A stretch of DNA of 64,000 bases from Escherichia coli (GTDB lineage Bacteria > Pseudomonadota > Gammaproteobacteria > Enterobacterales > Enterobacteriaceae): the NCBI RefSeq assembly GCF_044324875.1, contig NZ_CP172185.1. The stretch is one strand, 5' to 3'. The notes below the pieces were generated by a model. That model was not told where the DNA came from and made no database searches. It saw nothing but the letters and a program-made list of their open reading frames with translations. The position numbers and the translations under genes are program-made. Of this stretch, positions 5,054 to 36,660 are shown one piece after another (the stretch's first letter is position 1; every line of letters begins with the position of its first letter).

Positions 5054-5308
5054 ATGGAATGCCGTCCGGGTTGCGGGGCGTGTTGCACTGCCCCTTCAAT
5101 TTCCAGCCCTATTCCCGGTATGCCAGATGGCAAGCCCGCCAATACGCCCTGCATTCAGCTTGATGAACAGCAACGCTGTAAAATTTTCACCTCGCCACTG
5201 CGACCGAAAGTTTGTGCGGGCTTACAAGCCAGCGCTGAAATGTGCGGTAACTCGCGTCAGCAGGCAATGACCTGGCTTATCGATCTGGAAATGCTGACCG
5301 CGCCTTAA
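5054..5308 (+). CDS. yeiW: Small cysteine-cluster protein (UPF0153 family)
   Basis: 84 aa [33 protein letters not shown]...; stop overlaps 3' end of setB convergently. Confidence 0.75.
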
Positions 5309-6486
5309 ACATCTTTAATCCGCAGTAAGCAAAACAGAGTGGCGATAATCATCACCATCGCAAACCAGAACACAGCGTGATAATTCCAGATCTCGGCGAC
5401 GATGCCCGCCACTGATCCTGCGATGATCCAGCCCACGCGCGACGTGTTGGTATAGAGCGTGGTGGCTGAACCTGCCTGACCGGGCATCAAATCCTGAAAA
5501 TAGAGCATCCCGATGCCACCCAGAATGCCAATAAAAATAGCATTTAGCAGCTGCAAGCCCAACAGAATGGCAGGTGAATGCGCCATCAGCATTCCTGCGT
5601 AAAAACAGACGCCACCCACGGCAGCAACGCGCATTAAGAAGCGCTTACCCAGACGTTTGGCGAAATATCCGGCAATCAACATGGTCGGGATTTCCAGCCC
5701 GGCGGCGGTCCCCATCATCACACCGGCCAGTTTCTCGGGAAGATGCAGTTCGTTGATAATAAATAGCGGCATGTTGATGATGTACAGGCTGTTCGAGCCC
5801 CACATCAATGTACAAATGACAAACAGCAGCAGCGTATCGCGACGGTTACGGCGCGGCGCTTCAACCGTGCCGGTCGCCAGCGGAAGTTCTTTTTGCATTG
5901 ACGGTAAAAACAGCCACACCATCACGCCGCAAACAATAAACGCTACCGCTGCGCTCAGATACATTACCGTAAAGCTGAAACCCATCGCTAAGGCATAAGC
6001 CAGCGGCGGGCCAATGACCCATGCCAGTGAAACCTGAGCACGTAAAAAAGAGCTGAACATCACCGCTTCACGTCCGGTTTTGTCAGCATGTTCACGGGCA
6101 AGGGCAAACATTTGCGGGTTAGCGGTCGAGCCAAAGCTGCTAAGAAAGACGCCAACGAATAGCAAAACAAAGTAGTTGCGATTCCAGGCAAAAAGGGTGC
6201 AGGCCAGCACGCCTAACAGGCAGCAAAAGACAATCAGCGATTTGCGATCGCCGCGCTTATCAGAGCGCCCGGCGAGAAACTGACTGACCAGAATCCCAAT
6301 GACAGCGCTGCCGGTAAAGAAGAATCCCACCATCGCTGGACGGGCATGTACTTCATCGGTAAGAAAAATGCTGAGTGTCGGGGTTTGCAGAGCGCCCGCA
6401 ATACCGGTGAGAAAGGCAACGATTAAAAACGCCGTCGAGGTCAGATCAAACGATTTCGCGCTGGAGACTGCGGGGGAGTTATGCAT
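5305..6486 (-). CDS. setB: MFS sugar efflux transporter
   Basis: 393 aa, 12-TM MFS-like, [28 protein letters not shown]... Confidence 0.88.
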
Positions 6487-6752
6487 GCTGGTCGATCACT
6501 GGAAGAGGAAGACGCGGAGTTTACGCTGCTTGTCAGAAAATAAACAGACAGCGAAATCAAAAGCGCCACGAATAATCAAAATGCCATTTCACTGTTGCTG
6601 ATTGGCTGCTGACGCTGCTGAAATGAAATTGCTGATAACGGATTTTCCCATCAGCAATTAGGAAAAATGACAAAAAATTGTGCAGCACATCAAACTTTTG
6701 CTCATAACTTTACGGCTTTCCTTGCGTGCTGAAATAGAAGTATTATGCTTTC

Positions 6753-6767
6753 TTGAAACGTTTCAGC
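6753..6767. promoter_or_regulatory. Cra (FruR) operator O1 of fruBKA promoter
   Basis: Palindrome TTGAAACGTTTCAGC upstream of fruB. Confidence 0.7.
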
Positions 6768-6818
6768 GCGATCTTGTCTTTAACCCTAAGCCAGGTTGGC
6801 GCTTTTTTTCTCATAGAA

Positions 6819-6839
6819 GCTGAATCGTTTCAATTCAGC
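6819..6839. promoter_or_regulatory. Cra (FruR) operator O2 of fruBKA leader
   Basis: GCTGAATCGTTTCAATTCAGC palindrome 15 bp before fruB ATG. Confidence 0.7.
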
Positions 6840-6853
6840 AAGAGAGGAGAACT

Positions 6854-7984
6854 ATGTTCCAGTTATCCGTACAGGACATCCATCCGGGCGAAAAGGCCGG
6901 AGACAAAGAAGAGGCGATTCGCCAGGTCGCTGCGGCGCTGGTGCAGGCCGGTAATGTAGCTGAAGGCTACGTCAATGGCATGCTGGCGCGCGAACAGCAA
7001 ACCTCTACGTTCCTCGGCAATGGTATTGCTATTCCACACGGCACTACCGACACCCGCGATCAGGTGCTGAAAACCGGCGTTCAGGTATTTCAGTTCCCGG
7101 AAGGCGTCACCTGGGGTGACGGCCAGGTAGCGTACGTGGCGATCGGTATTGCTGCCAGCTCGGATGAACATTTGGGCCTGCTACGCCAGCTGACCCACGT
7201 ACTGAGCGATGATTCCGTTGCTGAACAACTGAAGTCAGCAACAACAGCAGAAGAACTTCGCGCATTGCTGATGGGCGAAAAGCAGAGTGAGCAGCTGAAG
7301 CTCGACAACGAAATGCTGACGCTGGATATCGTCGCCAGCGATCTGCTGACTCTTCAGGCGCTGAACGCTGCACGTCTGAAAGAAGCGGGGGCAGTTGACG
7401 CCACTTTCGTCACCAAAGCCATCAATGAACAACCGCTGAACCTCGGACAGGGCATCTGGCTGAGCGATAGCGCCGAAGGCAATCTGCGTAGCGCGATTGC
7501 GGTAAGCCGTGCGGCAAATGCTTTTGATGTGGACGGCGAAACGGCAGCCATGCTGGTGAGTGTGGCGATGAATGACGATCAGCCCATTGCGGTTCTTAAG
7601 CGTCTCGCTGATTTGTTACTCGACAATAAAGCTGACCGCTTGCTGAAAGCGGATGCGGCAACGTTGCTGGCGCTGCTGACCAGCGATGATGCGCTGACCG
7701 ACGACGTGTTAAGCGCGGAGTTTGTGGTGCGCAATGAACACGGCCTGCATGCTCGTCCAGGTACCATGCTGGTCAATACCATTAAACAATTTAACAGTGA
7801 TATTACCGTGACAAACCTTGATGGCACCGGCAAACCGGCAAACGGACGTAGTCTGATGAAAGTTGTGGCACTTGGCGTTAAGAAAGGTCATCGCCTACGC
7901 TTTACCGCCCAGGGTGCAGATGCTGAACAGGCGCTGAAAGCCATTGGCGACGCTATCGCTGCTGGTCTTGGGGAGGGCGCATAA
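6854..7984 (+). CDS. fruB: PTS fructose-specific IIA/FPr multiphosphoryl transfer protein
   Basis: 376 aa, [24 protein letters not shown]..., C-terminal HPr-like domain. Confidence 0.93.
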
Positions 7985-8922
7985 TGAGCAGACGTGTTGC
8001 TACTATCACCCTTAATCCGGCTTATGACCTTGTTGGTTTCTGCCCGGAAATTGAACGCGGCGAAGTGAACCTGGTGAAAACCACCGGTCTGCATGCGGCG
8101 GGTAAAGGCATCAACGTGGCCAAAGTATTAAAAGACCTGGGAATTGATGTCACCGTTGGCGGCTTCCTCGGTAAAGACAATCAGGATGGTTTTCAGCAAC
8201 TGTTCAGCGAGCTGGGCATTGCCAACCGTTTCCAGGTTGTACAGGGGCGCACCCGAATTAACGTTAAGCTGACGGAAAAAGACGGCGAAGTGACCGACTT
8301 CAACTTCTCGGGTTTTGAAGTCACTCCCGCCGACTGGGAACGCTTTGTGACTGATTCTCTGAGCTGGCTCGGTCAGTTCGATATGGTCTGTGTCAGCGGA
8401 AGCTTACCGTCAGGCGTCAGCCCGGAAGCGTTCACCGACTGGATGACTCGCCTGCGTAGTCAGTGTCCTTGCATTATCTTTGATAGTAGCCGTGAAGCGT
8501 TAGTAGCAGGTTTGAAAGCGGCACCGTGGCTGGTGAAACCTAACCGCCGCGAGCTGGAAATCTGGGCAGGCCGTAAACTGCCTGAAATGAAAGATGTGAT
8601 TGAAGCTGCGCATGCGCTGCGTGAACAAGGTATCGCGCATGTCGTTATTTCACTGGGTGCCGAAGGCGCGCTTTGGGTTAATGCCTCCGGCGAATGGATC
8701 GCCAAACCACCGTCAGTCGATGTCGTAAGCACCGTTGGCGCAGGGGATTCTATGGTTGGTGGCCTGATTTATGGCTTGCTGATGCGTGAATCCAGTGAAC
8801 ACACACTGCGTCTGGCGACAGCTGTTGCAGCCCTGGCGGTAAGTCAAAGCAATGTGGGTATTACCGATCGTCCGCAGTTGGCCGCAATGATGGCGCGCGT
8901 CGACTTACAACCTTTTAACTGA
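7984..8922 (+). CDS. fruK: 1-phosphofructokinase
   Basis: 312 aa pfkB-family kinase; start overlaps fruB stop (ATAATG). Confidence 0.93.
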   Translation: MSRRVATITLNPAYDLVGFCPEIERGEVNLVKTTGLHAAGKGINVAKVLKDLGIDVTVGGFLGKDNQDGFQQLFSELGIANRFQVVQGRTRINVKLTEKDGEVTDFNFSGFEVTPADWERFVTDSLSWLGQFDMVCVSGSLPSGVSPEAFTDWMTRLRSQCPCIIFDSSREALVAGLKAAPWLVKPNRRELEIWAGRKLPEMKDVIEAAHALREQGIAHVVISLGAEGALWVNASGEWIAKPPSVDVVSTVGAGDSMVGGLIYGLLMRESSEHTLRLATAVAALAVSQSNVGITDRPQLAAMMARVDLQPFN

Positions 8923-8938: not shown

Positions 8939-10630
8939 ATGAAAACGCTGCTGATTATTGACGCTAATCTCGGTCAGGCACGCGCCTATATGGCGAAGAC
9001 CCTGCTGGGCGCGGCGGCGCGAAAAGCAAAACTGGAAATCATCGACAATCCGAACGACGCTGAAATGGCGATTGTTCTCGGTGATTCCATCCCGAACGAC
9101 AGCGCGCTGAACGGTAAAAATGTCTGGCTGGGCGATATTTCCCGGGCAGTTGCGCACCCTGAGCTGTTCCTGAGTGAAGCCAAAGGCCATGCGAAACCTT
9201 ACACTGCGCCGGTCGCTGCGACAGCACCGGTTGCCGCCAGCGGTCCGAAACGCGTAGTTGCGGTGACTGCTTGCCCGACTGGCGTAGCACACACCTTTAT
9301 GGCGGCTGAAGCCATTGAAACCGAAGCGAAAAAACGTGGCTGGTGGGTGAAAGTTGAAACCCGTGGTTCTGTTGGCGCGGGTAATGCAATCACTCCCGAA
9401 GAAGTCGCAGCAGCGGATCTGGTGATTGTGGCGGCAGATATCGAAGTGGATCTGGCGAAATTTGCTGGTAAACCGATGTATCGCACCTCTACCGGTCTGG
9501 CGCTGAAGAAAACCGCGCAGGAACTGGATAAAGCGGTTGCTGAAGCAACGCCGTATGAACCGGCGGGCAAAACTCAAACAGCGACCACTGAAGGTAAGAA
9601 AGAGAGTGCAGGCGCTTATCGTCACTTGCTGACGGGCGTCTCTTACATGCTGCCGATGGTCGTTGCAGGTGGTCTGTGTATCGCGCTTTCTTTTGCTTTT
9701 GGTATCGAAGCGTTTAAAGAGCCGGGTACGTTGGCAGCGGCGCTGATGCAGATTGGTGGTGGTTCAGCCTTTGCGCTGATGGTGCCGGTACTGGCAGGTT
9801 ATATTGCCTTCTCCATTGCCGATCGTCCGGGCCTCACGCCGGGTCTGATTGGCGGTATGCTGGCGGTCAGCACTGGTTCTGGCTTCATTGGCGGTATTAT
9901 TGCGGGCTTCCTGGCTGGTTACATTGCGAAGTTAATCAGTACGCAATTGAAACTGCCACAGAGTATGGAGGCGCTGAAACCGATTCTGATCATTCCGCTA
10001 ATTTCCAGTCTGGTGGTCGGTCTGGCGATGATCTACCTGATCGGTAAACCGGTTGCTGGCATTCTCGAAGGGTTGACTCACTGGCTGCAGACCATGGGGA
10101 CTGCGAATGCGGTTCTGCTGGGGGCGATCCTCGGTGGCATGATGTGTGCTGACATGGGCGGTCCGGTAAACAAAGCAGCGTACGCATTCGGTGTGGGTCT
10201 GCTGAGTACTCAAACCTATGGCCCGATGGCGGCGATTATGGCGGCAGGTATGGTGCCACCGCTGGCAATGGGCCTGGCAACAATGGTGGCGCGTCGCAAA
10301 TTCGACAAAGCGCAGCAGGAAGGGGGCAAAGCCGCTCTGGTACTGGGACTGTGCTTTATTTCGGAAGGTGCAATTCCGTTTGCTGCTCGTGATCCGATGC
10401 GTGTGCTGCCGTGCTGTATCGTGGGTGGGGCGCTGACTGGCGCAATCTCAATGGCGATTGGTGCGAAACTGATGGCACCGCACGGTGGTCTGTTTGTTCT
10501 GCTGATCCCTGGCGCGATTACGCCGGTATTGGGTTACCTGGTAGCCATTATTGCCGGTACGCTGGTGGCGGGTCTGGCCTATGCCTTCCTGAAACGTCCG
10601 GAAGTGGACGCAGTAGCGAAAGCAGCGTAA
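8939..10630 (+). CDS. fruA: PTS fructose-specific IIB'BC component
   Basis: 563 aa, N-terminal IIB domains then multi-TM IIC. Confidence 0.93.
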   Translation: MKTLLIIDANLGQARAYMAKTLLGAAARKAKLEIIDNPNDAEMAIVLGDSIPNDSALNGKNVWLGDISRAVAHPELFLSEAKGHAKPYTAPVAATAPVAASGPKRVVAVTACPTGVAHTFMAAEAIETEAKKRGWWVKVETRGSVGAGNAITPEEVAAADLVIVAADIEVDLAKFAGKPMYRTSTGLALKKTAQELDKAVAEATPYEPAGKTQTATTEGKKESAGAYRHLLTGVSYMLPMVVAGGLCIALSFAFGIEAFKEPGTLAAALMQIGGGSAFALMVPVLAGYIAFSIADRPGLTPGLIGGMLAVSTGSGFIGGIIAGFLAGYIAKLISTQLKLPQSMEALKPILIIPLISSLVVGLAMIYLIGKPVAGILEGLTHWLQTMGTANAVLLGAILGGMMCADMGGPVNKAAYAFGVGLLSTQTYGPMAAIMAAGMVPPLAMGLATMVARRKFDKAQQEGGKAALVLGLCFISEGAIPFAARDPMRVLPCCIVGGALTGAISMAIGAKLMAPHGGLFVLLIPGAITPVLGYLVAIIAGTLVAGLAYAFLKRPEVDAVAKAA

Positions 10631-28501: not shown

Positions 28502-28539
28502 CTGTAACCGTTTCCATTGCTGTGACTCGATTCACGAAG
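28502..28539. promoter_or_regulatory. Candidate GalR/GalS operator pair upstream of galS
   Basis: ctgtaaccgtttccat and tgtgactcgattcacg resemble GTGnAAnCGnTTnCAC. Confidence 0.4.
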
Positions 28540-28612
28540 TCCTGTATTCAGTGCTGACAAAATAGCCGCCAGCAAGCAGTCATTTACTGCAATCTCATAA
28601 CAGGTAGTGAAT

Positions 28613-36511: not shown

Positions 36512-36660
36512 AAATATTGCGTGCTGATATTAAGGCTATGCGCGTGGGGAAATTTAAACTGTGAAAGGATTCACAAATAGCTGCGGTTCAGAATGTTATA
36601 TCCGCAGCTTATTGAGTGAAGTAATAATTATTCTCAATAATTAACAGAAAAGAGAAAATA

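Follow-up and report, generated by a model that had tools for sequence, protein, structure and literature searches.

The window, which is the whole stretch of 64,000 nucleotides (64 kb) of Escherichia coli chromosomal DNA analysed here, carries the genes yeiR, yeiQ, yeiP, yeiW, setB, the divergent fruB, fruK, fruA and psuK in this order, as annotated in K-12 and in a 99.9% identical strain. The products FruB, FruK and FruA gave NCBIfam equivalog matches with E values of 1e-195 or better. The spacer between setB and fruB contains the features listed below together with the flanking genes.

5305..6486, minus strand: setB, encoding a sugar efflux transporter and divergent from fruB (match to NF011587, an NCBIfam equivalog, with E 2.5e-264; RefSeq annotation)
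6679..6694, no strand assigned: CRP-like box TGTGC-N6-TCAAA (TGTGCAGCACATCAAA), common to the fruB and setB promoters (conservation; published CRP target)
6722..6749, plus strand: putative fruB promoter, with -35 TTGCGT (6722-6727), a 16-bp spacer and -10 TATGCT (6744-6749)
6754-6765, plus strand: Cra operator O1 (fruBproximal), TGAAACGTTTCA (exact consensus match; published operator)
6765..6803, plus strand: stem-loop of the leader terminator, an RNA hairpin that takes up the O1-O2 spacer (fold and covariation)
6803..6810, plus strand: U7 tract (6803-6809) and mapped RNA 3' end at C6810 (T-run 80-95% conserved; Term-seq)
6819..6839, plus strand: inverted repeat GCTGAAT-N7-ATTCAGC enclosing O2, candidate second leader hairpin (minimum free energy, MFE, fold)
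6821-6832, plus strand: Cra operator O2 (fruBdistal), TGAATCGTTTCA (exact consensus match; published operator)
6842..6856, plus strand: Shine-Dalgarno region (GGAG at 6846-6849) and fruB start codon at 6854 (sequence reading; conserved)
6854-7984, 7984-8922 and 8939-10630, plus strand: fruB, fruK and fruA, respectively (ORFs; NCBIfam NF008319, NF007068 and NF007984; annotation)

The region 6300-7100 was matched by 5,411 of the 5,426 complete E. coli genomes with 95-100% identity, always between setB and fruB. Its 87-bp stretch 6753-6839, which contains the two operators, was found as a single copy per genome at 95% identity or more in 5,410 of the 5,426, and 2,218 of these 5,410 were identical to the window over that stretch. 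Along the 367-bp spacer, the window and K-12 differ at four positions, none of them in the 12-bp operator cores. One is an A/G polymorphism at 6818 (A here, G in K-12), located one base outside the 16-bp form of O2.

Upstream of the operators, the CRP-like box agrees with TGTGA-N6-TCACA at 8 of 10 positions and lies at about -70 from a transcription start that is itself a predicted position, to be set against the -61.5 or -71.5 typical of class I CRP sites. Its TGTGC and TC.AA elements were at least 95% conserved in the upstream regions of the 69 listed Enterobacterales loci described below. In published SELEX work CRP selected the fruBKA-setB spacer, which holds a single site for it, and a crp mutation lowers the activity of both promoters (PMC3105977; PMC8088597); the 6679-6694 box fits this published single CRP site of the divergent promoters. 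The pentamer CTTGC (6721-6725), at the upstream edge of the putative -35 hexamer, was also conserved in at least 95% of the sequences. In other genera, hexamers of the AAGACT type fall at the position of the -10. As read from these elements, transcription would start at A6756-A6758. Counting from there, O1 would occupy about -3 to +9 and the hairpin +9 to +47, the RNA 3' end would fall at +54, and O2 (+65 to +76) and the ATG (+98) would follow. A consensus scan of positions 6400-6900 detected neither a promoter nor a terminator; this was not taken as absence of these elements because the promoter is weak and presumably CRP-dependent and the hairpin is non-canonical. The conserved box and the published promoter assay in the crp mutant both point to CRP dependence of the weak fruB promoter.

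Operator pair in the fruBKA control region

The initial annotation had placed two palindromes matching the Cra (FruR) consensus in the fruB promoter and leader. Both are present and they are the sole exact matches to TGAAWCGWTTCA in the window, where 0.02 would be expected from dinucleotide-preserving shuffles; none of 100 shuffles held two matches. In its 16-bp form O1 reads CTTGAAACGTTTCAGC (6752-6767) and overlaps the predicted transcription start, while O2 reads GCTGAATCGTTTCAAT (6819-6834) and is located in the leader, about 70 nt after that start. The longer reads of the two sites are cttGAAACGTTTCAgcg (6752-6768) and gcTGAATCGTTTCAattcagc (6819-6839). O1 is a perfect palindrome and O2 is symmetric at 5 of 6 positions. 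On the reverse strand O1 reads GCTGAAACGTTTCAAG, which agrees with the O-cra consensus GCTGAAACGTTTCA at 14 of 14 positions; O2, as GCTGAATCGTTTCAAT, agrees at 13 of 14. Their centres are 67 bp apart, with 55 nt of intervening spacer, and both sites lie in the setB-fruB spacer, O1 100 nt and O2 33 nt upstream of the fruB ATG at 6854. The range originally assigned to the pair, 6753-6839, spans both sites plus an additional TTCAGC arm on the 3' side of O2.

When one mismatch to TGAAWCGWTTCA was allowed, three further matches were obtained (at 28523, 36562 and 61034) against 0.65 expected. None was retained as a Cra site: those at 36562 and 61034 were taken as chance matches, being probably inside sanA and yehW by collinear mapping onto the annotated strain, and that at 28523 corresponds to a GalR/GalS-type operator upstream of galS. 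In that region, 28503-28536, two LacI-family palindromes (TGTAACCGTTTCCA and GTGACTCGATTCAC) are found about 75-100 nt upstream of galS (GTG at 28607). They look like GalR/GalS-type operators, the second of them being the one-mismatch match at 28523.

The two fruB sites have been characterized experimentally. Table 1 of PMC11157272, which cites the footprints of Ramseier 1993, gives fruBproximal as TTCTTGAAACGTTTCAGC and fruBdistal as GAGGCTGAATCGTTTCAA. The window is identical to the former and to the 16-bp part of the latter, the sole difference being the flanking base 6818 (A instead of G), so that the comparison with published Cra footprints advised in the initial annotation bears out its assignment as far as the operators of that table are concerned. 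Cra binds both operators and is released from them by fructose-1-phosphate. Atomic force microscopy of a 331-bp fruBKA promoter fragment detected separate Cra homodimers on the two sites (PMC11157272). In enteric bacteria, FruR operators of the form GCTGAAnC/GnTTCAGC are located downstream of the start site (PMC7897506), and the placement of the pair in promoter and leader fits both this literature and the promoter proposed above. The regulatory architecture is likewise the one anticipated for this operon; the sites lie in the control region of fruB, fruK and fruA and these genes were independently identified. The pair itself was already known and constitutes an ordinary finding.

The motif alone is less informative than its location. 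Tandem pairs of the TGAAACGTTTCA type, with spacers of 41-66 nt, were also found beside genes of LacI-family regulators in Firmicutes, Actinobacteria and Rhizobia, among the listed loci with no FruB homologue (e.g. L036, L058 and L085). On this sequence comparison the core TGAAACGTTTCA is generic for LacI-family operators and not specific to Cra, and because of this the Cra assignment rests on the genomic context together with the published binding data. The window does not contain the cra gene.

Conservation of the pair was studied by scanning one genome per species for two cores 40-70 nt apart, which gave at least 120 loci. In 69 of those listed, the gene directly downstream encodes a FruB homologue with 64-98% identity, and every one of these with a named source belonged to Enterobacterales. 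These 69 loci were chosen for carrying both operators and the invariance of the cores is therefore partly built in, so that the independent evidence comes only from spacing, flanks and gene linkage. The spacer measured 54-56 nt in all 69 listed loci (66-68 bp between centres), the distance from the end of O2 to the ATG was 19-25 nt, and O1 was always TGAAACGTTTCA bearing a GCG flank that was not part of the search requirement. At O2, the same 69 loci carried TGAAACGATTCA (56), TGAATCGTTTCA (11) or TGAATCGATTCA (2), all of which retain the operator form GCTGAAnCGnTTCA, and the perfect palindrome was found in none. The variant TGAATCGTTTCA occurs in E. coli and Citrobacter, and its mirror image TGAAACGATTCA in most other genera. 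This imperfect O2 beside a perfect O1 suggests that selection either favours an O2 that is weaker or asymmetric or disfavours a perfect repeat of O1 and O2. Besides the CRP-like box and CTTGC, the profile of the 69 upstream regions displayed conserved blocks at O1, at the T-run (6803-6812) and over O2, TTCAGC and the Shine-Dalgarno sequence.

Leader hairpin and RNA 3' end between the operators

The initial annotation overlooked the spacer between the two operators, a functional element in its own right. Between O1 and the T-run the sequence is variable, yet its two ends remain complementary. In E. coli they form a hairpin (AGCGC...GCGCU) with an RNA minimum free energy of -14.2 kcal/mol and a z-score of -2.57. 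When the spacers of 68 species were folded individually, the mean energy was -15.1 kcal/mol and the mean z-score -2.78, with 75% of them below -2. Between O1 and the start of the hairpin there is 0-1 nt in 61 of the 68, and between its end and the O2 flank 15-17 nt in 59; at least five U are found within the 8 nt following the stem in 54.

The helix is supported by compensatory changes, both sides having changed in 7 of its 11 pairs. One position is paired in the 68 sequences through five different combinations (UA in 28, UG in 20, CG in 13, AU in 5 and GC in 2). In an alignment that was not fitted to the structure, the covariation score was 0.320, compared with at most 0.177 for slid registers, and none of 500 shuffles scored as high. 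The frequent G.U pairs indicate that the conserved element is RNA on the fruB strand rather than a DNA palindrome. The E. coli hairpin departs from the canonical terminator geometry (a short uninterrupted GC-rich stem with a loop of 3-8 nt), its stem being 39 nt long with mismatches, and it must consequently be regarded as an atypical member of the intrinsic terminators; in many orthologues 9-13 stem pairs are uninterrupted.

Published Term-seq data place an RNA 3' end just behind this hairpin and its U-tract. The end, at K-12 position 2263539(-) and 44 nt ahead of the fruB ATG, corresponds to window position 6810 (Adams et al., 2021; PMC7815308 supplements). Listed in all three growth conditions of that work, none of which included fructose, it collected 218,310 reads in LB at OD 0.4 and 431,335 in a second condition (PMC7815308). 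No Rho termination region is assigned to it (Rho score 0.26), and it has an intrinsic terminator score of 9.61, values above 3 suggesting an intrinsic terminator (PMC7815308). The K-12 sequence is identical to that of the window in the region of the hairpin and the 3' end, C6810 is the first base after the U7 run, and the read count is very high with respect to those of neighbouring 3' ends. Term-seq 3' ends may also arise by exonuclease trimming to a stable hairpin or from stalled polymerase. Taken together, the covariation, which establishes the structure, and the mapped 3' end indicate that the fruB leader contains a conserved intrinsic terminator, which ends 9 nt before O2. The abundant leader RNA that it produces has its 3' end at 6810 and, counted from the predicted start, would be about 54 nt long.

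The entry for 2263539 appears solely in a supplementary table and without the label of characterized element, and fruB is absent from the main text of that article (PMC7815308). In the literature searched, the enterobacterial fruB leader is nowhere described as having a terminator, stem-loop, attenuator, sRNA or roadblock, and the leader terminator seems never to have been studied. An Rfam search of the leader at a permissive threshold gave only noise (E > 2) and no family.

Other structures of the leader were also considered. A classical attenuator or riboswitch was discarded, as the leader has no antiterminator, leader peptide or aptamer and only about 8 nt precede the hairpin; the only leader ORF is a 68-aa TTG frame running into fruB, and the sequence of the hairpin loop is not conserved. 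A pairing between the U-run (6804-6812) and the Shine-Dalgarno purines (6842-6850), present in the MFE fold, was rejected because it was paired in 84.7% of cells, no better than slid or shuffled controls, and is probably a composition effect. Similarly, RNAalifold on the 68-sequence alignment proposed a long-range O1:O2 duplex with zero covariation, which was rejected because palindromes as alike as these two can always pair with each other and because only part of O1 is transcribed. The inverted repeat at 6819-6839 has 7 bp and lies just before the Shine-Dalgarno sequence, with 96.5% of cells paired and 7 U.G wobbles, and its 3' arm TTCAGC is 80-95% conserved though outside the operator. Since its 5' arm is fixed by the operator, little covariation is possible, and an RNA hairpin and a DNA palindrome are here inseparable.

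More distant loci were gathered through FruB representatives at 43-52% identity, with no preselection for the motif, which provided ten usable upstream regions. Six of the ten carry a Cra-like site no further than 110 nt from the ATG. In five of these six (L126, L129, L131, L132 and L135) a T-run ended 8-12 nt before GCTGAA, and in three of the five a significant hairpin preceded it (z-scores of -3.6, -2.6 and -5.0). L126 has the module of hairpin, T-run and operator without any O1-like site. Within this small sample, the distant loci are consistent with a conserved terminator-operator module. In Vibrio cholerae, the operator centres precede the ATG by 258.5, 236.5 and 109.5 bp, with transcription starting at 239-241. 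A 107-nt transcript, IGR4, begins at that start, which puts its end about 20 nt short of the O3 centre, and mutation of O3 raises expression on glucose.

Proposed role of the second operator and alternative explanations

As an overall explanation, we consider it almost certain that the palindromes are the known Cra operators and that the spacer between them encodes a terminator, to which we add a Cra roadblock as a step that we infer. In cells lacking fructose-1-phosphate, as is established, Cra occupies O1 and O2, and its presence on O1 blocks initiation from the weak promoter. According to our proposal, polymerases that nevertheless initiate would meet the hairpin and the U7 tract, where transcription would terminate at 6810 independently of Rho. 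Counted from the point of release, the O2 flank is 9 nt and the O2 centre 16.5 bp further downstream, and the footprint of RNA polymerase reaches about 15-20 bp ahead; a polymerase at the U-tract would therefore abut Cra bound at O2. Such a Cra molecule could act as a roadblock that stalls the polymerase and makes termination efficient, thus providing a second checkpoint after initiation. The release of Cra by fructose-1-phosphate is likewise established knowledge. Stalling of polymerase at the terminator would also explain why a second operator exists about 70 nt downstream of the start.

The conserved geometry, the out-of-phase spacing of 66-68 bp, the detection of Cra as dimers and the abundance of the short RNA favour the roadblock, and the looping FruR tetramer of the older literature stands against it. 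The abundant leader RNA in fructose-free media implies that O1 does not stop all initiation, which is awkward for simple occlusion. A more extended version of the proposal can be formulated, in which a leaky terminator is made efficient by Cra at O2, this operator being a roadblock relieved by fructose-1-phosphate and not an auxiliary looping site. The RNA of about 54 nt may then be a small RNA, and the module (hairpin, U-run, 8-12 nt, operator) would extend beyond Enterobacterales to Vibrio-type loci and explain IGR4 and the O3 phenotype. We regard this complete version as tentative and somewhat unlikely to hold in all its parts.

The alternative that survives best is DNA looping, in which O1 and O2 would be held together either by tetrameric Cra or by Cra dimers with FruK as a bridge, and the spacer would merely set the length of the loop. 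PMC7897506, citing older work, describes E. coli FruR as a tetramer able to loop tandem sites; FruK-bridged Cra dimers able to loop the operators have been proposed and higher-order complexes observed (PMC11157272). The tight conservation of the O1-O2 spacing also agrees with a loop. However, the separate homodimers imaged on the two operators speak against it (PMC11157272), and looping accounts neither for the compensatory RNA base-pair changes with G.U wobbles nor for the 3' end at 6810. In addition, the distance of 66-68 bp represents about 6.4 helical turns, which, from the phasing of Lac loops, puts the sites on different faces of the helix for so short a loop. We judge looping in place of the terminator unlikely; both are compatible and not mutually exclusive.

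It is quite improbable that the hairpin is a 5'-proximal stabiliser or a processing stop of the fruB mRNA, with the 6810 end as a decay intermediate and O2 acting independently. Such a function could be imagined for a hairpin that starts only about 8-10 nt from the predicted 5' end, given that stable hairpins block 3' exonucleases and that the interrupted E. coli stem is atypical of a terminator. It leaves aside, however, the conserved U-rich tail directly after the stem in most species (54 of 68) and the properties of the 3' end itself, which falls on the first base after U7, with a high intrinsic score, no Rho dependence and very high reads.

Retention of the sites, or at least of O2, for a reason other than Cra was considered very improbable. 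Another LacI-family protein could recognize the generic core, and the window does carry GalR/GalS-type operators upstream of galS; alternatively, 6819-6839 could serve as a hairpin arm controlling translation, to which the conservation of the TTCAGC arm outside the operator would correspond. Against this, Cra has been reported to bind exactly these sequences, O2 retains GCTGAAnCGnTTCA in the 69 listed species where pairing alone would tolerate change, and the anti-Shine-Dalgarno pairing shows no covariation beyond composition. Finally, that the palindromes are functionless chance matches has a negligible probability, since the sole point in its favour is that 12-mers can recur, and two matches against the 0.02 expected, 67 bp apart in one spacer where they were predicted and conserved in 69 listed species and 5,410 E. 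coli genomes, already refute it.

All that the operator pair contributes is confirmation of the textbook regulation and of which operon this is; the terminator matters more. The fru operon, the founding target of Cra, commonly serves in assays of Cra, fructose-1-phosphate and FruK effects, and the existing models of its regulation are of plain promoter occlusion. The new element is an uncharacterised, conserved leader terminator between the operators, visible in Term-seq data, whose 3' end under non-inducing conditions ranks with the more abundant of the neighbouring entries in those data. If the terminator is genuine, the occlusion picture changes: reporter fusions and operator-spacing experiments on the fru promoter also alter an RNA element, and the long-unexplained downstream operator gains a concrete and testable role.

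Comparison with known regulatory systems

The O1/O2 pair of fruBKA in E. coli and Salmonella is the very system described here, with the same locus, sequences and positions relative to fruB, the polymorphism at 6818 aside. With lac O1/O2/O3 and other multi-operator systems of the LacI/GalR family it shares a primary operator at the start site, an auxiliary one in transcribed DNA and release by an inducer. The auxiliary lac operators act by tetramer looping at in-phase distances, whereas the fru pair has a spacing of about 6.4 turns, Cra was imaged on it as dimers and a terminator is encoded between the two sites.

Repressor roadblocks are known for PurR at purB and for CcpA and CodY at sites downstream of promoters. 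These cases resemble the proposal made for O2 in that the repressor site lies well downstream of the start and acts only on elongating polymerase. To our knowledge, none of them has an intrinsic terminator just upstream of the site; the proposed roadblock coupled to a terminator originates in the present work.

Like the leader terminators and short RNAs derived from 5' UTRs that were obtained by Term-seq (Adams et al., 2021), the fruB leader has a hairpin with a U-tract in the 5' UTR and an abundant, Rho-independent premature 3' end. It differs from those elements in having no alternative antiterminator, leader peptide or riboswitch aptamer.

The fruB leader of V. cholerae departs from that of E. 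coli in several aspects: FruR acts there as an activator, its site lying between the -35 and the -10, the fruR gene is a divergent neighbour, the leader exceeds that of E. coli in length, and IGR4 has been interpreted as a possible processing product. Even so, both leaders have multiple FruR sites, one of them far downstream, and in both a short leader transcript ends before that site.
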